Virus record (IMG/VR): IMGVR_UViG_2534681675_000028
From: a virus
Taxonomy: Duplodnaviria; Heunggongvirae; Uroviricota; Caudoviricetes
Length of the DNA: 34,318 bases
Strand: one strand, 5' to 3'
Part shown: one piece after another, positions 1-20,002 of the stretch
Layout: each line of letters starts with the position of its first letter
Position numbering within the stretch: the first letter of the stretch is position 1
Position numbers and translations under genes: made by a program
The notes under the pieces: generated by a model
Databases searched by the model: none
What the model was told of the DNA's origin: nothing
What the model saw: the letters and a program-made list of their open reading frames with translations, nothing else

Positions 1-906
1 CTATATTTCCAGACATCTGTTATCACTTAACCCATTACAAGCCCGCTGCCGCAGATATTCCCGTGGCGAGCGATAACCCAGCGCACTATGCGGATGCCAT
101 TCGTTATAATGCTCGAACGCCTCTGCAAGGTTCTTTGCTGCCGTTAACCCGTCTGGTTTGGGCATGTTACTGATGTAGTCACGCTTTATCGTTTTCACGA
201 AGCTCTCTGCTATTCCGTTACTCTCCGGACTCCGCACCGCCGTGTTCTTCGGTTCAAGTCCCAACATCCGGGCGAACTGGCGTGTTTCATTAGCCCGGTA
301 GCATGAACCATTATCCGTCAGCCACTCCACTGGAGACGACGGAAGATCGTTGCCGAAGCGGCGTTCCACCGCTCCCAGCATGACGTCCTGTACTGTTTCA
401 CTGTTGAAGCCGCCGGTAGTGACCGCCCAGTGCAGTGCCTCACGATCACAGCAGTCCAGCGCGAACGTGACACGCAGTCTCTCTCCGTTATCACAGCAGA
501 ACTCGAACCCGTCAGAGCACCATCGCTGATTGCTTTCTTTCACGGCCACTCTGCCTGTATGTGCCCGTTTCGATGGCGGTACAGCAGGTTTTCGCTCAAG
601 CAACAGCGCATTCTGGCGCATGATCCGGTAAACACGTTTGGCATTGATCGCAGGCATACCATCAAGTTCTGCCTGTCTGCGAAGCAGCGCCCATACCCGA
701 CGATAACCATACGTGGGCAGCTCTCCGATAACATGGTGTATACGGAGAAGCACATCCGTATCATCAGTGTGACGACTGCGGCGGCCATCCATCCAGTCAT
801 CGGTTCGTCTGAGAATGACGTGCAACTGCGCACGCGACACCCGGAGACAACGGCTGACTAAGCTTACTCCCCATCCCCGGGCAATAAGGGCGCGTGCGCT
901 ATCCAC
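1..906 (-). CDS. insD: IS2 transposase OrfB (InsD), DDE integrase-like
   Basis: 301-aa ORF whose sequence I recognise as IS2 InsD; stop codon at window positions 1-3. Confidence 0.9.
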
Positions 907-1229
907 TTTTTTGCCCGTCCATATTCAACGGCTTCTTTGAGGAGTTCATTTTCCATCGTTTTCTTGCCGAGCAGGCGCTGGAGTTCTTTAATCTGCTTCA
1001 TGGCGGCAGCAAGTTCAGAGGCAGGAACAACCTGTTCTCCGGCGGCGACAGCAGTAAGACTTCCTTCCTGGTATTGCTTACGCCAGAGAAATAACTGGCT
1101 GGCTGCTACACCATGTTGCCGGGCAACGAGGGAGACCGTCATCCCCGGTTCAAAGCTCTGCTGAACAATTGCGATCTTTTCCTGTGTGGTACGCCGTCTG
1201 CGTTTCTCCGGCCCTAAGACATCAATCAT
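864..1229 (-). CDS. insC: IS2 OrfA (InsC), HTH transposase subunit
   Basis: ORF 864-1274 trimmed to the internal Met ([13 protein letters not shown]...), giving about 121 aa; overlaps insD as expected for IS3-family frameshifting. Confidence 0.85.
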
Positions 1230-1320
1230 CTGTTCTCCAATGACTAGTCTAAAAACTAGTATTAAGACTATCACTTATTTAAGTGATACTGGTTGTCTGG
1301 AGATTCAGGGGGCCAGTCTA

Positions 1321-1468
1321 CGGCAGAAATCCGGGGTATGGTGACGACAGTTACAGACCAGTCTGCATCGCAATCTGGATCAAAGTATTCAGGCTGAATG
1401 CGGGGACACCCGTGACGGTGTCGGTTTCAGGTAATGCAGTGACGGTTATCTGGATGTCGAAGGCGTAA
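1321..1468 (+). pseudogene. 3' remnant of a phage gene (possibly host-specificity/tail fibre J-like C-terminus) whose 5' part is cut off by IS2
   Basis: Reading frame is open from the IS2 boundary to a stop at 1466-1468 (…[21 protein letters not shown]); lies immediately upstream of a lom remnant as in lambda J-lom order. Confidence 0.3.
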
Positions 1469-1473
1469 ACACG

Positions 1474-1760
1474 ATGAAGATGCCACAACTACCGGCAAAA
1501 CTGAGTGCCGGGTATCTTCATGCCCGTTCTGATATGTCCGGCAGTGATGATTTAACCGGGTTCAATGTGAAATACCGCTATGAATTTACGGACACGCTGG
1601 GGCTGGTGACGTCATTCAGCTATGCAGGAGACAGGAATCGCCTGCTTACCCGTTACAGTTATACCCGCTGGCATGAAGACTCCGTGCGTAACTGCTAATT
1701 CAGCATGATGGCGGGTGTGGCTTACAGCCGTGTTTCCACCTTCTCCGGGGATTCGTAATT
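1474..1760 (+). pseudogene. lom: lom-like (Ail/Lom/PagC family) outer membrane protein remnant, lacking signal peptide and with internal deletion and premature stops
   Basis: Translation [44 protein letters not shown]…[10 protein letters not shown] then out-of-frame MAGVAYSRVSTFSGD matches my recollection of lambda Lom; no signal peptide, stop after RN. Confidence 0.6.
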
Positions 1761-1912
1761 AGCTTGCTAAGCATGCGATGTCAGGCTGATTAGTGAAGTG
1801 ATGTTGTTCGCATTTTGTCAGGGAGGGGGTATTGAGACTTTTTTGGAGAGTAGAGATCTGGTGTGGTTGTAAAAATTGTTGTTGGCATTGAGAGCTGAAA
1901 ATATACCAGGCT

Positions 1913-1948
1913 CTAAAAAACTAAGGGGTTACCATTTGGTAACCCCTT
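1913..1948 (-). terminator. Rho-independent terminator downstream of the tRNA-Ser 3' end
   Basis: Perfect 11-bp stem AAGGGGTTACC/GGTAACCCCTT with 4-nt loop; on the minus strand it is followed by a T6 run. Confidence 0.6.
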
Positions 1949-1956
1949 ATCTTATT

Positions 1957-2016
1957 TGGCGGAAGCGCAGAGATTCGAACTCTGGAACCCTTTCGGGTCG
2001 CCGGTTTTCAAGACCG
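1957..2016 (-). other. att core: 3'-terminal 60 nt of a tRNA-Ser (anticodon UGA, long variable arm, CCA end) without the 5' half
   Basis: Reverse complement reads CGGTCTTGAAAACCGGCGACCCGAAAGGGTTCCAGAGTTCGAATCTCTGCGCTTCCGCCA; sequence beyond 2016 does not continue the tRNA; directly adjacent to int. Confidence 0.7.
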
Positions 2017-2156
2017 AAGAAAAATAAAGAAAAATCAGTATAATACGCAAAATAGCCGAAAAGTTAATCAGACTTAACACCAAGAAAAATCAAGATGTTA
2101 GGGAGTTATTCAGAGTTAATATACCAGGTCTTTTGCCAGAAAATTTTCTGGATTGT

Positions 2157-3176
2157 CTACTTACTGACCACAAGCGGCAAATCCAGTGTTGGCGTGATTT
2201 TGGTTTTACGATCGTAAATCAACACCTGATTTTCTGTTTTGTGTCCACTGAAAATTTGTTTGTCGCGACTGCTGCCTTCGTAATCTGAAATTCCTTTGGC
2301 TTTTATGTCATGGAAGTTGCACCCAAACGGAACACCGGCTTTTTGCTCGGCTGCACGTTTAGCCTGATTCCACCAGTTGTTCAGCGTTTTAGCTATGACC
2401 TTCCCGCCTTTGGTTGTGTTGATCACATACTCGCATGTGCCGGAAGATACATTTCGGGCTAACTGGATCGCCGTACGTAATCGTGGAGACCATTCCTTGA
2501 TTTGTTTGGTGCCGGTCTTGTTTTGCTCAATGTAAATCCCTTTGTCCATAATATCCTGCCATTTCAGCTCGAGCACATCACCGAGCCTTGCCGCACAGAG
2601 ATAGGATATCTCCATTGCAATACGTAACTGTGGAATTGCTTCCGCATATATCGCAGCATACTGTTCATCGGTGATGTAAACAGTACGGGCTTTAAGCGTG
2701 AATTTTCTGACTCCTTTGCATGGATTATTTTTCACATACCCACGCTCATATCCCCATCCGTATACGCGACTCAGACTTGCCAGTTCATGGTTTGCCTGGG
2801 TCTTGCTCTCAAGCCCCCGCTTATCCATGAAAATTCTTACCTGCTCAATTTTTACATTATCAGCAAGCATTTTCCCGAATACCGCCAGTAATGCCCTTTG
2901 ATGTTGCCGATAATCTTTTTGGGTTCGGGGGGCCAGTTCTGTAAATGCAGGGGAGTCCATAAACATGTGCCATAATTTAGCTACGGTCATTATGTCGTGG
3001 AGTTTTGCCTTTTCCAGTTCATAATTTTGCCAGACTTTAGCCACGCTGGTTTCCCGCACTCTTCCTAGCTTTATCGTCCTTGTGCTTCCTTTGGGCTTCC
3101 ATACGTAACTGTAACCATTCGATCTAACGCGCGGTGGCAGTACATTATCTTTTTTGTCTTTTCTTGGTCTTCCCAT
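2157..3176 (-). CDS. int: Phage integrase, tyrosine recombinase (lambda Int family)
   Basis: 339-aa ORF; N-terminus MGRPRKDKKDNVLPP… and overall layout resemble lambda Int; adjacent to the tRNA-derived att core. Confidence 0.9.
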   Translation of the reverse strand: MGRPRKDKKDNVLPPRVRSNGYSYVWKPKGSTRTIKLGRVRETSVAKVWQNYELEKAKLHDIMTVAKLWHMFMDSPAFTELAPRTQKDYRQHQRALLAVFGKMLADNVKIEQVRIFMDKRGLESKTQANHELASLSRVYGWGYERGYVKNNPCKGVRKFTLKARTVYITDEQYAAIYAEAIPQLRIAMEISYLCAARLGDVLELKWQDIMDKGIYIEQNKTGTKQIKEWSPRLRTAIQLARNVSSGTCEYVINTTKGGKVIAKTLNNWWNQAKRAAEQKAGVPFGCNFHDIKAKGISDYEGSSRDKQIFSGHKTENQVLIYDRKTKITPTLDLPLVVSK

Positions 3177-3396
3177 TATTCAGTGCCTCAAAATCGGGTT
3201 CAGCAGAAACCAGTTCAGATACTTTTGACATTGCTGTTAGTCCACGTGGAATATCACAGCGTAGAACTATCGGCTCGTTTTTAGGCCCGATTAAAAATGG
3301 GATGCCGTGCAGTCTTAACTGGTGTTGCTGTCTTGTGTATCGCTTGTATTTCGTGATCTCTTGAATCTCTGCTGGCGATAGAGTTAATTCATACAT
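3145..3396 (-). CDS. Putative excisionase/small DNA-binding protein
   Basis: 83-aa ORF between int and the early-left operon, overlapping the int start as xis does in lambdoid phages; call is from position only. Confidence 0.35.
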   Translation of the reverse strand: MYELTLSPAEIQEITKYKRYTRQQHQLRLHGIPFLIGPKNEPIVLRCDIPRGLTAMSKVSELVSAEPDFEALNNGKTKKRQKR

Positions 3397-6416: not shown

Positions 6417-6993
6417 TATCGCGTCCTCAACAATGAATTTTGTGATGCGGTGCCTGGTGCCTCCAGGTGACGTTAACCAGTTAACAATTAACGCCGGATA
6501 CAGAGAATCCACCCATAACACTGTTTTTGGTTTTAACTGTTCCGCGTGCGCTGAGCCGCATTCACCGCATCACAAAATTCACTTTTAAAAAAGGGCGGCA
6601 GAGCAGTCACGGAGTAAAACTGATACCGCCAAATGTCACCAGAATATTGATAACAGAGGGCGTTGTAGCGGGGTTGTCACTTAAGCGTATGGTCAACCTG
6701 ACAACCCGGTGTCCTCAACGGGGAAAGGCGTCCCTCCCACCCCCGCCATACTTACCGCCGCGCCATTTCGCGGGTCGCCACAACCGGAAGCGCACGGTCG
6801 AATTAAATTTAACGACACCGTGCAGTGAGACGAACTTCGCCGTGCGCTTTCGTGTTGTGTGCCTGCTTTTAACCACGTCAGGCGAGGTGGTTTCCGTCAT
6901 TCCCCAACGACAGGAAATCTGTATAATCTGGGTATCCCCAACGATCCAAGGAAATCATATGACAGAGCAAAGAGCACAAGCAGGTGATGGTGT

Positions 6994-12585: not shown

Positions 12586-13276
12586 GTGACTGAATTAACC
12601 AAAGAGCAATTAATCGAAGAAGCCAAATTAAAAATAGCGATTGCGAAATGCCACCCCAATTCAGGGATGGCACGGGTAGAGGGCGAGTTATTCAAAATTG
12701 CACTGGCATCGCTGGTAGCAGAACCGCTGGTGCCCGTCATGTATAAAGGAATGAAACTGTTAACAAAAGAGGGGCTTGAGCTTATTCGTGACGGTATTGC
12801 GGAGGCTACGGGACTGGAAGCAATGTGTATGGCTGATGCTTTGCTGTCTGGGGGGGGGGGCAGTGCCGTCAGTGCCGAAAGAAATGTATTGGCAGGATGC
12901 ACCAGTTGAAAGTAGCAGCAAAGCAGCTGCATACGCTACAGGCTGGAAAGCCTGCCGCGAAGCCATGCTTCAGTCCGGAAACTTTCGGGATAATAAGAAT
13001 TCGTCAACCAACAATTTTCGGGAAATCCCGGAAACGTCAACCAGCTCTCAGGGAACTCCGGCTGGCTGGATAAGCTGTAGTGATGCAGTTCCTGCTGAAT
13101 ATTGCGATGTGATTCTGCGCGATGATCTCGGGAATGTATTCCCCGGTTCATGGGATAAGGTTTTTTGCCCCACTCGTGGCGGGAATAAGATGGCTTTTGT
13201 GGACAAAGACGGCGTCGAAGTAGAGAGCTCAACCCACTGGATGCCGCTACCAGAATCGCCGAAGGTGGTGAAGTGA
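12586..13276 (+). CDS. Ea22-like/DUF551-type protein split into two overlapping ORFs (12586-12909 and 12776-13276) at a G11 homopolymer
   Basis: Two ORFs in frames +1 apart meet at the G run 12850-12860; removing one G gives a single ORF (…LLSGGG|AVPSVPKEMYWQ…); C-terminus has the HWMPLPE motif I associate with DUF551. Confidence 0.5.
12850..12860. repeat. G11 homopolymer inside a coding region
   Basis: Direct reading: ctg followed by ten g. Confidence 0.9.
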
Positions 13277-13450
13277 TGGAAAATGAATTCGAAAATGCTA
13301 TCGCCACGGTGCAGCCAAAATCAATAGTTGAGTAGACTTACTCTGAGGCTTGACTACGAGGTTACCATTAGGTGTAATTTAGAGTAAGTTGGTAGCCTCA
13401 GTTGTCGAAGAGGCATAATGGTGATTGTTAGTTGATGCAATAATTAAGGA

Positions 13451-13942
13451 ATGTTAATGCCTACTAATGCTGAACAACCAGTATCAATTAGTAAACCGAA
13501 GACCGTTACACTTCGTGCTTTTGAAATAAAAAACACTGCACTTTCGAAAAGTTCTAGCGAAGCTAAGGCCGATTTGATAGCAAGGCTTAGTCAAGTAAAA
13601 CAGGCAAAAGATAGATGCATGTTGTTAAATCCAGAAGATCCTAAGCAGGAAAGAGATGTTCTTTCGTATTTTAAAGAATCTCCTGTTACTGATTCAGTAT
13701 TTTGCACTATGTTAAGGATTACATCTGACAAAGAAATCCAACACATAACAGATTCTCTTTTTGAGAAAGAGGTCTTTTCTCTGGATGATATAGAAACATC
13801 TCATTTAGATGTGTCAGCAATATGTAAAGGCCATTACTATTTTTGCATGAGTGATGATTTTTTAGTTACAAATCTCCCATTAAATAAAACGATTGTGCGT
13901 TTACAAACGTATCTGAGTTGGTTTACAAATAATGAGCTTTAA
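13451..13942 (+). CDS. Hypothetical protein, gene A of an AT-rich accessory cassette
   Basis: 163-aa ORF; markedly AT-rich relative to flanking phage genes; family not recognised. Confidence 0.5.
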   Translation: MLMPTNAEQPVSISKPKTVTLRAFEIKNTALSKSSSEAKADLIARLSQVKQAKDRCMLLNPEDPKQERDVLSYFKESPVTDSVFCTMLRITSDKEIQHITDSLFEKEVFSLDDIETSHLDVSAICKGHYYFCMSDDFLVTNLPLNKTIVRLQTYLSWFTNNEL

Positions 13943-13957
13943 GAATTCACCCCACTA

Positions 13958-14470
13958 GTGTCAGCAAAAGGGAAAACGAAACTTAGTGATTTAAAAGCCA
14001 TAATCGTTAAAGATCCAGAACCGTTAGTACCGACTGCTATGTGTGATGAGTCTGGTGTTAGAAGTAAAAAGGGAGAAATTACGGTTAGCGAAGGTCATAA
14101 ATCTATCAAGTTAACACAAAAAGTTCTGGATATTATCAGGAGTTCGATGTCAGACTCTGAACAACTTAATGATATGATGCTGAGTCAAATGATTTCTGCT
14201 GAATTGTTAATAAAATTTAAAAAGCCACGCAGAATGACAGATGATGAATATAGTAGAGCTTTAGGGGCTTATTTGAAACCCGTTAGCGATCTTGATAATG
14301 TATCATTTAAGCGAAAAGATAACAAAACAGAAGTGAAAGGCAAGGATTTGCTGTTAACAAAGTCTGTAAGTATTGAAACGACACAGTCAGGTAAATTAGT
14401 TGAGCATCATTTGCTACAAGAGATGAGCAAGTTTTTGCTAGAGTTAAGCAATGAAAAAAATAGCGGTTAG
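13958..14470 (+). CDS. Hypothetical protein, gene B of the cassette; same reading frame as gene A, separated by a single TAA; no evident Shine-Dalgarno
   Basis: 170-aa ORF; in-frame continuation after the TAA at 13940-13942 reads EFTPLVSAKGKTK…. Confidence 0.4.
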   Translation: MSAKGKTKLSDLKAIIVKDPEPLVPTAMCDESGVRSKKGEITVSEGHKSIKLTQKVLDIIRSSMSDSEQLNDMMLSQMISAELLIKFKKPRRMTDDEYSRALGAYLKPVSDLDNVSFKRKDNKTEVKGKDLLLTKSVSIETTQSGKLVEHHLLQEMSKFLLELSNEKNSG

Positions 14471-14912
14471 CGTATTATCAATATTGCTGCTCACATTGTT
14501 GGCTAGTTCAGTCTGGGATGTTCGTCCGGACGGTTTTTTTGCGTCGACAGTTTTTACAATTTCTGGAATAATGTTCTCAATTGGATTAGGGCTAATTGTG
14601 AATTTTAGCACATCCGGTGTAAGGAACCGTGGATACATTCTGCGTATTAGACGTAATGTAATGAGGGTGAGGAATTCATTTCTATTATATTTTGGTTTGT
14701 CGACTTTTTCTTACATAGCAAATCAATATCTTACTGCTTTTGAGTTTTCTTTAACCTTTGGTGATGGTATCAAAACATGTTTTAGCGCATCCATATTCTT
14801 TTGCTTGCTTATAATTTATTCCTCTATATATTTTGTTGTTAATTTTATAGAGTTGCAAAAACTCAATAATGATATTTTTGATAAAGTCAATGCGGAAATA
14901 ACTAACAAATGA
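14451..14912 (+). CDS. Small polytopic membrane protein (about 4 predicted transmembrane helices), gene C of the cassette
   Basis: 153-aa ORF overlapping the end of gene B by 20 nt; four long hydrophobic segments; AT-rich. Confidence 0.55.
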   Translation: MKKIAVSVLSILLLTLLASSVWDVRPDGFFASTVFTISGIMFSIGLGLIVNFSTSGVRNRGYILRIRRNVMRVRNSFLLYFGLSTFSYIANQYLTAFEFSLTFGDGIKTCFSASIFFCLLIIYSSIYFVVNFIELQKLNNDIFDKVNAEITNK

Positions 14913-15123
14913 AATGGCTTTTGTGTGCATGTTAAATAAAGAATACATGGCATCATTTAATGATGTCATGTGTAACGAGCGAAAAGCCTTTTGAACGGTT
15001 TTCATAAGTTATATTGAAAGATAAAATTGCTGCGGGTGCTTGAGGCTATCTGCCTCAGGCATGAACACCAACGGCAGATAGATAAAAGCCCCACCCGACT
15101 ATAAATCGAAGTGAGGCCCCTAT

Positions 15124-15336
15124 ATGCTCGTCACATACAGATTGCCTCTTACGGACCGAAAGGTCAAGGAGAAGCAGGCTATGAAGCAGCAAAAGGCGAT
15201 GCTAATCGCCCTGATCGTCATCTGTTTAACCGTCATAGTGACGGCACTGGTAACGAGGAAAGACCTCTGCGAGGTACGAATCCGAACCGGCCAGACGGAG
15301 GTCGCTGTCTTCACAGCTTACGAACCTGAGGAGTAA
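15124..15336 (+). CDS. mok: mok-like reading frame (N-terminally extended, in frame with hok)
   Basis: ORF in the same frame as hok sharing its stop codon, the arrangement I recall for chromosomal mok/hok pairs. Confidence 0.5.
   Translation: MLVTYRLPLTDRKVKEKQAMKQQKAMLIALIVICLTVIVTALVTRKDLCEVRIRTGQTEVAVFTAYEPEE
15181..15336 (+). CDS. hok: Hok/Gef-family type I toxin (51 aa)
   Basis: MKQQKAMLIALIVICLTVIVTALVTRKDLCEVRIRTGQTEVAVFTAYEPEE closely resembles Hok (…[25 protein letters not shown]…); AGGAG Shine-Dalgarno. Confidence 0.8.
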   Translation: MKQQKAMLIALIVICLTVIVTALVTRKDLCEVRIRTGQTEVAVFTAYEPEE

Positions 15337-15403
15337 GAGACCTGGCGGGGAGAATTCCCTCGCCACCTCTGATGTGTCAGGCTTCCTCAACGCACCCGCA
15401 CTT

Positions 15404-15430
15404 AACCCGCTTCGGTGGGTTTTGTTTTTT
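15404..15430 (+). terminator. Rho-independent terminator after hok
   Basis: Hairpin AACCCGC-TTCG-GTGGGTT followed by TTTGTTTTTT. Confidence 0.6.
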
Positions 15431-15502
15431 CTGTGCATTCTGGTTTACAATTCGCACGCCAGCCTGAACAACTGGCACCTGCTGCGCCAGCAGAGACAAC
15501 CG

Positions 15503-15781
15503 ATGGCGCACGATACCAAATTACACAATTCTGATGATTCTGCCGTCTTTGCCAGCAGGCACGGGCTGCGTTCTCACGCATTCAAATATGACTGGTATCA
15601 GCACGATCCCTGTACTGAAGAACAGGCCGAATGGCTGATTCATAACTACCGCAGACGTGGGTATGAGTTTAAGAAAGCCCTCAGTCTCGATTATCGTCAC
15701 TGGATAATCTACGTCAGGCTCCCTTATTCCGAACGCCCGCCGCGTCCATCCCGCACATTCCAGCAACGGATCTGGAGGTAA
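15503..15781 (+). CDS. Hypothetical nin-region protein
   Basis: ORF 15374-15781 trimmed to the ATG at 15503, because the upstream part overlaps the hok terminator. Confidence 0.4.
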   Translation: MAHDTKLHNSDDSAVFASRHGLRSHAFKYDWYQHDPCTEEQAEWLIHNYRRRGYEFKKALSLDYRHWIIYVRLPYSERPPRPSRTFQQRIWR

Positions 15782-15782
15782 C

Positions 15783-16832
15783 GTGCGGGTATTACTTCGA
15801 CCTGTTCCGGTGCCGGAACTCGGGCTGGTGGTCCTTAAGCCGGGCCGTGAATCTATGCAGGTATTTCATAATCCCCGGGTACTGGTGGAGCCGGAACCGA
15901 AAAGCATGCGCGGTCTGCCGTCCGGAGCTGTTCCTGCCGTTCGCCAGGCGCTGGCGGAAGATAAATCATTACTGCCATTTTTCAGCGATGAGCGGGTGAT
16001 TCGTGCTGCTGGCGGCGCTGGTGCACTGTCTGACTGGCTGTTGCGTCATGTCAAATCCTGCCAGTGGCCTCATGGTGACTATCATCACAGTGAAACCGTC
16101 ATACATCGTTACGGTACCGGCGCGATGGTGTTGTGCTGGCACTGCGACAACCAGTTGCGTGACCAGACCTCCGAATCACTCGGGCAACTTGCTCATCAAA
16201 ACCTGTCGGCATGGATGATTGACGTCATACGCCACGCAATGAATGGCACACAAGAGCGGGAATTATCGCTGGCTGAATTGTACTGCTGGGCTGCTGTAAA
16301 TGATGTAGTGGATGCCATGACCGAAAATATGGCGCGTCGAATCCTGAAGCGTCCGGGTGAAAAAATCCGCTCAATATACCGCGAGAGCGACATCATACCG
16401 GGAGAACCGACAGCCACCAGCATACTGAAGCAGCGCACAAAAAATATTGCGCTACCACCTTACGCCCACCAGCAACAGAACCCACCACAGGAAAAGACGG
16501 TGGTCAGCATCGCCGTTGATCCGGAGTCTCCTGAATCTTTCATGAAGCGACCTAAACGTCGCCGTTGGGTAAATGAGAAATATACGCGCTGGGTGAAGAC
16601 TCAGCCGTGTGCGTGTTGTGGTCAACCAGCCGACGATCCCCATCACCTGATTGGTCATGGTCAGGGCGGAATGGGAACAAAGGCCCACGATATTTTTACA
16701 CTACCGCTGTGCCGGGAGCATCACAACGAACTTCATGCGGATCTGCTGGCGTTCGAAGAAAACCATGGTTCCCAGATTGATTTAATTTTTCGTTTTCTTG
16801 ATCACGCCTTTGCAACCGGCGTGCTTGGGTAA
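15783..16832 (+). CDS. DUF968-type prophage protein with C-terminal HNH-like Cys/His motif (YdfU-like by recollection)
   Basis: 349-aa ORF; GTG start with GGAGG Shine-Dalgarno; C-terminal CACCGQ…HHLIGHGQGGMGTKAHD…CREHHNELH. Confidence 0.6.
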   Translation: MRVLLRPVPVPELGLVVLKPGRESMQVFHNPRVLVEPEPKSMRGLPSGAVPAVRQALAEDKSLLPFFSDERVIRAAGGAGALSDWLLRHVKSCQWPHGDYHHSETVIHRYGTGAMVLCWHCDNQLRDQTSESLGQLAHQNLSAWMIDVIRHAMNGTQERELSLAELYCWAAVNDVVDAMTENMARRILKRPGEKIRSIYRESDIIPGEPTATSILKQRTKNIALPPYAHQQQNPPQEKTVVSIAVDPESPESFMKRPKRRRWVNEKYTRWVKTQPCACCGQPADDPHHLIGHGQGGMGTKAHDIFTLPLCREHHNELHADLLAFEENHGSQIDLIFRFLDHAFATGVLG

Positions 16833-16844
16833 AAGAGGTTACTG

Positions 16845-17216
16845 ATGCGTATAGAGTTTGTTTTGCCTTACCCGCCGACGGTGAACACCTACTGGCGACG
16901 TCATGGCAGCACATATTTTGTATCAAAAGCCGGTGAGCGTTATCGCCGTGATGTGGCGTTCATTGTTCGCCAGCAGCGGTTGAAATTAAACCTCTCCGGA
17001 AGGCTGGCGATAAAGATTATTGCAGAGCCACCGGATAAGCGCCGTCGTGACCTGGACAATATCCTGAAAGCACTGCTGGATGCGCTGACACATGCGGGGC
17101 TGCTTATAGACGACGACCAGTTTGATGAAATCAATATTGTGCATGGTCTGCCTGTTTGCGGTGGGCGACTGGGTGTGAATATATTCGTAATAAGAGGATG
17201 TAATGATGTTGCGTGA
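16845..17216 (+). CDS. rusA: Holliday junction resolvase RusA
   Basis: 123-aa ORF; YWRRHG…[22 protein letters not shown] matches RusA motifs as I recall them. Confidence 0.85.
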
Positions 17217-17577
17217 TATTCAGCTGGTTATGGAGCGGTGGGGAGCATGGGCAGCAAGTAATCATGAAGATGTAACATGGTCCTCGATAGCTGCTGGTTT
17301 TAAAGGATTAATCCCGACTAAAGTGAAATCACGTCCTCAGTGTTCTGATGATGACGCCATGATAATTTGTGGCTGTATGGCACGATTAAACAAGAATAAT
17401 CAGTATTTGCACGATTTGTTGGTGGATTATTACGTAGGTGGAATGACATTTATGGCTCTTGCACGTAAGCATAGATGTTCTGATGGGCTTATTGGTAAAA
17501 GACTTTATAAAGCTGAAGGTATTATTGAAGGAATGCTTATGGCTCTGAATGTCCGGTTAGATATGGATATGCGGTAG
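17203..17577 (+). CDS. Q: Late-gene antiterminator Q (phage 21/82-type, QuuD-like)
   Basis: 124-aa ORF; [34 protein letters not shown]…[16 protein letters not shown] matches my recollection of QuuD. Confidence 0.85.
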
Positions 17578-17670
17578 GGATATATAGTGACGAGGGTTAT
17601 GTTTTCCGTGTTTATAATTAATATGTTTATTTTTTGATGGTCATGAATTTTATGGAAGGTAAACAAAATG

Positions 17671-17699
17671 TTGCCAGGTGAATTGAAAATATTGATAAT
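17671..17699 (+). promoter_or_regulatory. Sigma70-type promoter (TTGCCA, 17-bp spacer, GATAAT) downstream of Q: candidate late promoter pR' or cargo promoter
   Basis: Direct reading: -35 at 17671-17676, -10 at 17694-17699; about 30 bp upstream of the next start codon. Confidence 0.45.
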
Positions 17700-17730
17700 C
17701 AATCATCATCATTAAATAAAAGGAGTGTTT

Positions 17731-18549
17731 ATGTGGATTGTGTTAGCACTGTCACTGTCAACTCTCAGTTGGCATAAGGTAGTGGCTTTTTCATTGTTGA
17801 CGGTGTCTGTTGTCCTGGCTGTGCTTAATGATATTATTGATTGGCCGGTGTTGTTTTTTGTTGCTACAATCGTTTTTTTTATTATTTTGAAGTTCAACTG
17901 GAAATATAACGCCTGGGCTAAATCCATATATGAAGCTGGCATAGTTTTATCAGCCATAGCATTATCTTTCCATTTATGGCCAGGGTTTCACAATCCTGTA
18001 GTGCTAAAGTCTGTCACTGTCGGACCTCAAAGCACTCCCTATACAATGTATTTTAATTTTGATAAAGCGCTGGTGCCATTTTTGTTAGTCCTGTGTACAG
18101 CTTCTTTGTTTAAAAAAGAAGTGAAATCAGAAGTGTCTTTGTGGAAATGGGGGGCTCTGTTGCTCTCTGTTCCTCTTATACTGTTTTTGGCTGTTTTTTT
18201 TGGTGGGTTAAAGCCAGAGATTCATTTTCCAGAGTGGTTGCCAGAGTTTATATTGGCTAATTTGTTTTTTGTGTCTCTGGCAGAGGAGTCATTATTTAGA
18301 GGGTATATTCAATCACGGCTATCAGAAGTGACGTCTCCATTGGTTGCGTTAATTGTGGCGTCTTTGTTGTTTGGTTTTTATCACTATTCAGGTGGTGCTT
18401 TACTTGTATTATTTGCCACGTTATCTGGTGTTGTGTATGGATTGTCATGGATGTGGAGTGGGTGCTTGTGGGTGGCAACCCTTTTCCATTTTGGTCTGAA
18501 TCTGTGTCACTTGTTATTCTTTACCTATCCATTCTTAAAACATAATTGA
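17731..18549 (+). CDS. CPBP-family (CAAX protease / Abi, PF02517-type) intramembrane metalloprotease
   Basis: 272-aa polytopic ORF with AGGAG Shine-Dalgarno; conserved motifs EExxxR (AEESLFRGY), FxxxH (FGFYHY) and HxxxN (HFGLNLCH). Confidence 0.75.
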   Translation: MWIVLALSLSTLSWHKVVAFSLLTVSVVLAVLNDIIDWPVLFFVATIVFFIILKFNWKYNAWAKSIYEAGIVLSAIALSFHLWPGFHNPVVLKSVTVGPQSTPYTMYFNFDKALVPFLLVLCTASLFKKEVKSEVSLWKWGALLLSVPLILFLAVFFGGLKPEIHFPEWLPEFILANLFFVSLAEESLFRGYIQSRLSEVTSPLVALIVASLLFGFYHYSGGALLVLFATLSGVVYGLSWMWSGCLWVATLFHFGLNLCHLLFFTYPFLKHN

Positions 18550-18688
18550 TTTTTTTCTATGGCTTTAAATTTATAACACTGAAAAATAGCAGTATGTGAC
18601 ATTTGCATGAAAAATATGCACGGCAAAGCATTTACGTACGTAAAAAATCATGTATGCTTTTAAGAGTGGTTATTTCACCGCATAGCCT

Positions 18689-18714
18689 GAACCCGCCTCT
18701 GAGCGGGTTTTTTG
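18689..18714 (+). terminator. Rho-independent terminator after the CPBP gene
   Basis: ACCCGC-CTCTGA-GCGGGT followed by TTTTTTG. Confidence 0.65.
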
Positions 18715-18836
18715 TGCCCGCAAAGTAGCGCAGTGCGTTAAATGTGCTGGTAGTTATTAATACTGGTCTTTCTGCTTGCTGGCTTTTTAGACAAGAGTTA
18801 TTGGTATGTCACGTTAACCAGAAAAGGGAAAAAGAC

Positions 18837-19034
18837 ATGCTAAAACAGCAGGATATGACCGAAACCGCCAGAGTGGTGTTTAATGAATTAAGCGTCACCG
18901 AACCGGCGACCGTCGGGGAGATTGCGCAGAATACTTACCTTTCACGCGAGCGCTGCCAGTTAATACTGACTCAGCTTGTTATGGCGGGTCTGGCAGATTA
19001 TCAGTTCGGTTGTTACAGACGCCTTCCGCAGTGA
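18837..19034 (+). CDS. Small hypothetical protein, possibly winged-helix DNA-binding
   Basis: ORF 18744-19034 trimmed to the internal ATG (MLKQQDMTET…) preceded by AAGGGAA. Confidence 0.4.
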   Translation: MLKQQDMTETARVVFNELSVTEPATVGEIAQNTYLSRERCQLILTQLVMAGLADYQFGCYRRLPQ

Positions 19035-19848: not shown

Positions 19849-19924
<76 letters not shown>

Positions 19925-19927
19925 TAT

Positions 19928-20002
<75 letters not shown>

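Follow-up and report, generated by a model that had tools for sequence, protein, structure and literature searches.

An attP-like junction beside a phage integrase gene in Escherichia coli: the probable inner boundary of a tandem prophage array at serT

How does a site with the layout of a free phage attachment site come to stand beside decayed phage genes? The question is raised by IMG/VR virus record IMGVR_UViG_2534681675_000028, a stretch of 34,318 nucleotides that we call the window. It opens with the insertion sequence IS2 lying in the end of a gene of the lambda J family, followed by a fragment of lom, the 3' end of a tRNA-Ser gene and a phage integrase gene (int). An earlier note, made from the letters of the window, left two options for this arrangement: it could be a tandem/remnant prophage junction located at a single tRNA-Ser site, or else the layout of a phage that is unintegrated or wrapped. 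Our analysis retained the first, while the second is excluded by the chromosomal context of the contig. With high confidence, we read the region as the point where two prophages meet in a tandem array at serT, on the chromosome between yccA and hyaA: an old prophage remnant (A) followed by a second prophage (B).

The E. coli draft contig AEZI02000026.1 (assembly GCA_000194175.2, record L008) ends with the window: its final 34,318 bases correspond to it, with 0 mismatches over the 7698 bases compared. The same contig is among the 24 that hold an exact protein match to the 74-aa open reading frame (ORF) of the lom fragment. Leftward of the window, it carries the missing 11 nt of IS2, a second CGGCA, the rest of remnant A, a second serT fragment and yccA, and it then runs into 500 kb of chromosome. 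The order along the contig is thus yccA, an orphan serT 3' fragment, the remnant A of about 2.65 kb, the attachment (att) junction, and the int and excisionase (xis) genes of prophage B. Inspection of the flank for a second att copy, as had been advised, located it together with yccA 3.7 kb to the left of the junction. Because the contig carries both at its left, the DNA is chromosomally integrated and is not a free or wrapped phage genome. No intact tRNA-Ser was detected in the window with ARAGORN and Rfam; none is immediately adjacent to the fragment, and no ordinary host genes take the place of the phage remnants.

The core of the junction lies at 1957–2016 on the minus strand and matches exactly the 3'-terminal 60 nt of K-12 serT, which encodes tRNA-Ser(UGA). 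By chance, 0.00 matches of 59 nt to serT would be expected. The terminator scan identified an intrinsic terminator hairpin downstream of the tRNA fragment, at 1922–1949 (minus strand), GGGGTTACC...GGTAACCCC, in which 12 pairs are followed by GTTTTTT. The tRNA-Ser 3' fragment of 60 nt with its terminator was therefore as the earlier note had described it, and so were its neighbors, with int on one side and a lom pseudogene on the other. Alignment of the att regions revealed three terminator variants that sort by origin: the host variant GGGGTTAGC...GCTAACCCC beside yccA, the phage A variant found in the window, and GGGGCTACC, shared by B and the free phage Evi. The A and host terminators differ by a compensatory change in the stem.

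The two arms of the junction have different origins. The non-coding left (P) arm, at 1753–1921, comes from phage A. It is identical in strains that hold only the remnant, where it abuts an intact serT, and shares about 83% identity with the right end of the full-length prophage that an O158:H23 strain carries at serT. A blastn search in distant mode with 1740–1925 gave no match in the phage collection, and relatives were found only in E. coli chromosomes. The first part of this arm (1753–1850) is also distantly related to a YkgJ-adjacent region in about 50 genomes. The right (P') arm of prophage B, at 2017–2156, is almost identical to the int-side arm of the Evi attP and to that of the single lysogen L002, and it contains repeats of the form AAGAAAAAT(A/C)A at 2017, 2027 and 2082. 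Judged by these alignments, window 1753–2156 constitutes a hybrid att site, P(A)-core-P'(B): its left arm and terminator (1753–1949) come from A and its right arm (2017–2156) from B.

The identity blocks also bear on the position of the crossover. In A-type junctions, the block ends within the anticodon loop, after ...TTTTCAA (window 2011), and in B-type junctions it ends 5 nt further, at 2016. Between the Evi attP and the K-12 attB, identity begins in the anticodon stem (window 2016) and extends 5 nt past the tRNA 3' end. From what is generally known of tRNA-targeting integrases, strand exchange probably takes place in or beside the anticodon loop (2006–2012). As expected of an element of this class, an intact serT is regenerated in records L003, L005 and L018. 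An 11-nt sequence, AATATACCAGG, occurs once on each side of the core, at 1900–1910 in the left arm and at 2118–2128 in the right arm, with a spacing of 218 nt; in phage Evi the corresponding TATACCAAG repeats share this spacing. Placed around the core at an Evi-like distance, the two copies are plausible candidates for arm-type Int sites. A genome-wide search for the arm motif ATATACCARG with one mismatch gave 5 matches against 2.7 expected, a number reached in 12 of 100 shuffles, and thus indicated no enrichment.

The core is present in three direct copies. The left copy, in the yccA-proximal orphan fragment (L008 2470–2553, about 2 kb to the left of where the window begins, with the core at L008 2500), carries two substitutions, in the T-loop and in the variable arm, as well as a mutated terminator stem, GCTCACCCC, both in the source strain and in most of its relatives; it is unchanged in N96, L011 and L016. 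The junction copy is the one in the window (1958–2016) and is always identical to functional serT. For the right copy, which forms part of an intact serT, the evidence comes from N96, the complete genome closest to the window.

Related strains display empty, single and double occupancy of the same site. K-12, compared as the empty-site strain that the earlier note had called for, has yccA, the host terminator, an intact serT and hyaA. OkiPb01695 is a single B-type lysogen, in which yccA and the host terminator are followed by a 60-nt serT fragment and int. Three sequences (MFDS1022581, MFDS1019527 and a Logan contig) hold the remnant only, in the order yccA, host terminator, 54-nt serT fragment, 171-bp int scrap, tRNA-Arg, tRNA-Gly, J scrap, lom fragment, A terminator, intact serT and hyaA. 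They are 100% identical over window 1321–1960, and records L003, L009 and L013 are classed as remnant only. In N96 and at least 7 other assemblies, the remnant is followed by a tRNA copy that ends after 60 nt and then by the int of a full-length lambdoid prophage, so that the arm of a tail end stands on one side of the junction and an int-side arm on the other. Records L008 and L010–L017 likewise combine the remnant with a prophage, and roughly 27 assemblies carry the remnant. The N96 layout is that of the source strain without IS2. Its prophage B carries its own J and lom at the far end and finishes with tail-fibre genes, an intact serT with the GGGGCTACC terminator, and hyaA. The intact tRNA that had been predicted beyond the far tail end is thus found beside hyaA in N96, although the source contig stops before that point.

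Other strains extend this series. In JE86-ST02 (L019 7000–8800), serT is occupied by a tandem of two full-length lambdoid prophages, joined by an internal junction of the same kind; there, a frameshifted YkgJ-family gene adjoins the attP-like site. The O158:H23 strain has a full-length prophage whose J end, lom and left arm are of the A type and which runs up to serT and hyaA. In L015, the same remnant as in our window precedes a different phage, with Exonuc_VIII and KilR genes and a different P' arm. Since the same remnant precedes a different phage in this record, the rebuilt serT has been used more than once. Finally, the free phage Evi (LR597642) has, in order, a tail fibre gene, lom, further tail-fibre genes, attP, int and DUF4224, with the B variant of the terminator.

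What lies to the left of the hybrid site is in an advanced state of decay. Remnant A, of about 2.65 kb, comprises an int scrap, tRNA-Arg, tRNA-Gly, a J scrap that amounts to the final 326 bp of the gene, and part of lom; IS2 lies inside the J scrap. The right-hand part of this scrap, at window 1321–1468 on the plus strand, is the 3' end of a lambda-J-family tail-tip gene (the last 49 codons and the stop). It shows 92–93% nucleotide identity to the in-frame J gene 3' end of a prophage in E. coli M8, where this end stands directly before an intact lom. A continuous J ORF of about 1130–1230 aa is absent, with 49 codons in the window and about 108 across IS2, frameshifted; what is left is a gene scrap. 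In N96, which lacks IS2, the scrap is likewise only 326 bp, is joined upstream to unrelated DNA and has a 4-bp deletion that shifts the frame. When the J C-termini of prophage B and of phage Evi were compared with the region by tblastn, no match was obtained. By this comparison, the scrap belongs to a C-terminal (receptor-binding) variant different from the J of B and Evi, and it was through the E. coli M8 prophage alone that it could be identified. The ORF annotated over the scrap in N96 gave no tblastn match among 50,697 phage records; it is a chimera of a scrap from downstream of stx and out-of-frame J sequence.

The lom fragment (1474–1752, plus strand) matches Pfam PF06316 Ail_Lom with an E-value of 2.4e-29. 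According to tblastn with three intact Lom proteins, it covers only residues ~26–130 of the 200-aa Lom, with an internal deletion and a stop codon at 1696–1698. The RefSeq annotation likewise marks both termini as missing. In place of a full-length Ail/Lom beta-barrel ORF of about 200 aa, the window thus has a pseudogene fragment. The distance between lom and att in intact relatives is about 2–3.5 kb; because side-tail-fibre genes occupy this interval in them, the short spacing in the window is the result of a deletion.

The remnant also offers a hint as to its ancestry. In N96 (L001 18147–20000), it includes 95 nt with 90.5% identity to the sequence that closely follows stx in the Shigella phages 7888 and 75/02 Stx. 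The sequence suggests an ancestor related to the Stx-type lambdoid phages; no stx gene is present in remnant A.

The history that we favor begins with a lambdoid phage A, which would have integrated into serT by Int-mediated site-specific recombination. Its attP would have held a copy of the 3'-terminal 55–60 nt of the tRNA together with a terminator of its own. Integration would then have pushed the 3' part of the host gene toward yccA and rebuilt a working serT at the tail end of A, made of 28 nt of host 5' sequence, 60 nt of phage 3' sequence and the phage terminator. Phage A would have decayed to about 2.65 kb before phage B, with a closely related integrase and the same site specificity, integrated into the rebuilt gene. 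This second event would have left the 3' tRNA part donated by A, with the A terminator, beside the B int as a hybrid site, and a new working serT would have formed at the far end of B, beside hyaA. IS2 would have transposed into the dead J scrap later, in this strain. That A is old and B came later is favored on three grounds: the remnant precedes at least two phages, the orphan copy is substituted while the junction copy is intact, and B is full length where A is reduced to scraps.

The same topology could have been reached by another route, with a full A and B double lysogen formed first, A decaying in place afterward and the remnant-only strains arising by Int/Xis excision of B. Full-length tandem pairs do exist at serT, as in JE86-ST02, and a tandem from which B had been excised would look exactly like L003, L009 and L013. 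However, an identical remnant (100% over 640 bp) precedes both the B type and the L015 phage, which is simpler if the remnant came first, and the substituted orphan fragment of most strains, set against a junction copy without changes, points to a much older first event. We therefore regard this route as unlikely, while granting it some weight.

Far less weight is due to the view that 1753–2156 is a true attP and the window a phage genome that is unintegrated, circularly permuted or wrapped. The gross order J, lom, att, int is indeed the attP order of phage Evi. Against this, J is reduced to 148 bp (326 bp without IS2), and the lom fragment has a premature stop; the left arm is unlike the P arm of B-type phages (Evi and the N96 attR) and matches remnant A; and prophage B of N96 possesses a J and a lom of its own at that prophage's far end. 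The continuation of the contig into yccA and 500 kb of chromosome led us to reject this view, which retains almost no probability. Equally negligible is a deletion or rearrangement mediated by IS2, in which that element, 640 bp from the att core, would have brought the phage scraps and int together, and it was rejected since the IS2 is full length with a 5-bp direct duplication, its flanks are collinear with the IS2-free N96 and MFDS1022581, which have the same junction, and this IS2 junction, present in none of 5426 complete genomes, is a recent event.

The prophage B integrase (2157–3176, minus strand) is a protein of 339 aa of the lambda-Int family, which scores 35.1 bits against Pfam PF00589 Phage_integrase (cut-off 27.1) and is annotated as a tyrosine recombinase in N96. 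In a phmmer comparison with lambda Int (1z1b), residues 1–318 align onto 1–339 with an E-value of 1.2e-16, and the N-terminal arm-binding domain is covered. The segments ARLGD, EQNKTG, FHD and GHK align with the surroundings of the lambda catalytic residues Arg212, Lys235, His308 and His333. As the alignment stops at query residue 318, we take the catalytic tyrosine (lambda Tyr342) to be that of LIYDR, by reading of the translation. NCBIfam provided no useful family for int or for the neighboring DUF4224 gene. The latter (3145–3396, minus strand; Pfam PF13986, E=9.5e-10) lies upstream of int, overlaps its start and is found at this same place in phage Evi and every B-type prophage. Its position indicates that the product is probably the excisionase, or directionality factor.

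Three points weigh against our interpretation. The first concerns the integrase: at the position of lambda Arg311 (box II, HxxR), the alignment of FHDIKAKG with FHELRSL places a lysine (HDIK), and the activity of the B enzyme is putative. The same lysine occurs in the phage Evi integrase and in the 57-aa int scrap of remnant A; because it is shared by these, it is a trait of this family of serT integrases rather than a lesion. That serT has been the target of independent insertions time and again speaks for a working enzyme, and a family that functions with Lys in place of the canonical box-II Arg would be a candidate oddity. The second point is that the source contig ends within the B tape-measure gene, so that an intact serT and hyaA beyond B are seen only in near-identical relatives. 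Thirdly, A may have decayed only after B had arrived, as in the double-lysogen route.

A further possibility may be considered, namely that the hybrid junction and the yccA-proximal attL are both still substrates of the B Int/Xis system. Besides B itself, induction could then release the 2.65-kb remnant with IS2 alone, or A and B could be excised together and packaged. We consider this improbable; if it were true, the remnant with its tRNAs and IS2 would be hitch-hiking cargo of B.

The insertion of IS2 is a separate and simple event. The element (IS3 family) occupies 1–1320 on the minus strand, as judged by Pfam domains and by BLAST matches annotated "IS3-like element IS2 family transposase". 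Its orfB/InsD (1–906, minus strand) has the rve, rve_3 and HTH_21 domains and overlaps orfA/InsC (864–1274, minus strand), which has HTH_Tnp_1. The window starts 11 nt inside the right inverted repeat, and these first 11 nt are lost to its edge. On the source contig, the element is complete, with 1331 bp (L008 4517–5847), terminal inverted repeats and a direct CGGCA on either side (GGAG CGGCA [IS2] CGGCA GAAATCC), the right copy of this 5-bp target-site duplication being at window 1321–1325. N96, which lacks the element, has one CGGCA at the corresponding point. In its size, its two overlapping ORFs, its inverted repeats and its 5-bp duplication, this copy does not differ from known IS2.

Given the target duplication and the collinear flanks in IS2-free strains, the insertion is a simple transposition. 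A search with window 1221–1420 found the IS2 junction spanned in none of 5426 complete E. coli genomes, and by these sequence comparisons the insertion is recent and strain-specific. The description of the neighboring sequence as an IS2-disrupted phage ORF needs to be amended: IS2 does lie inside a J-like end, but the ORF was already dead, 5'-truncated and frameshifted before IS2 arrived. As the J scrap is already truncated and frameshifted in the IS2-free N96, IS2 inactivated no working gene.

Over most of its length, the window prophage is 99.7–99.8% identical to that of N96. The exceptions are a replaced segment at 12731–15404, which is partly 86% identical, and the adjoining 15404–18846, at 96.8%. 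N96 has a 2.7-kb IS66-family insertion at the point matching window 18839–18846, which the window lacks. Comparison with N96 places the right end of the window (34318), which is also the contig end, inside the tape-measure gene of prophage B. The assembly breaks within B, and therefore its tail end and right attachment site lie on another contig.

Several other features were noted in prophage B. Genes for tRNA-Thr(TGT) and tRNA-Gly(TCC) are present at 19849–20002, downstream of the Q antiterminator gene and a truncated DNA methyltransferase gene (by the N96 annotation), where Stx phages carry tRNAs and stx. The small RNA DicF lies at 6593–6644 (minus strand), beside dicB. A hok/sok-type toxin-antitoxin locus is found at 15034–15183 (plus strand), with a score of 102.9 bits for its sok RNA, and the N96 annotation includes a Hok/Gef gene.

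The arrangement is of an already-known kind, that is Campbell integration at a known site, and shows no departure from known patterns. Polylysogen junctions with the structure of attP follow from the Campbell model, as in lambda double lysogens. As in Campbell tandem lysogeny, our locus has three direct core copies, an attP-like internal junction and host genes only at the outer ends; it differs in that the first element is a decayed 2.65-kb remnant of a different, related phage, so that the site is a hybrid and the true attP of neither. Regeneration of the tRNA from 3' sequence supplied by the phage is the classic mode of integration at tRNA sites. In the classification of tRNA-gene integration attributed to Reiter et al. 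in 1989 and Williams in 2002, an element that crosses over in the anticodon loop reportedly carries the 3' part of the tRNA. The window has the same identity block, which starts in the anticodon stem, at the second base of its 5' strand, and continues a few bases past the CCA end. Nothing about it is unusual, and the phage here also supplies its own terminator, with stem changes that are compensatory with respect to the host.

The chromosomal site has precedents as well. serT/yccA is among the prophage sites listed for Shiga toxin-producing E. coli (STEC), in which single sites have also been reported to carry tandem prophages (PMC8767318, PMC10925052). Among the tandem prophages of STEC, O121:H19 has four tandem sites, and its serT locus is occupied (PMC8767318); for Sp4 of E. 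coli O157:H7 Sakai, the site is given as yccA (PMC10925052). The serT lambdoid prophages Sp4, that of O121:H19 and Evi share with the window the chromosomal site and orientation, with int beside the displaced 3' fragment on the yccA side, Sp4 being likened to the window by the literature statement of its site only. Evi resembles it further in a near-identical integrase and a near-identical P' arm.

For this strain, the boundaries can now be set: remnant A with IS2 ends at window 1956, and prophage B begins at 1957. The working serT of such lysogens is a chimera, whose 3' 60 nt and terminator come from the phage. A prophage remnant is no barrier to re-use of a tRNA attachment site, the same remnant preceding at least two different phages across strains. 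While of little import beyond annotation, the case illustrates how prophage arrays build up in pathogenic and commensal E. coli.

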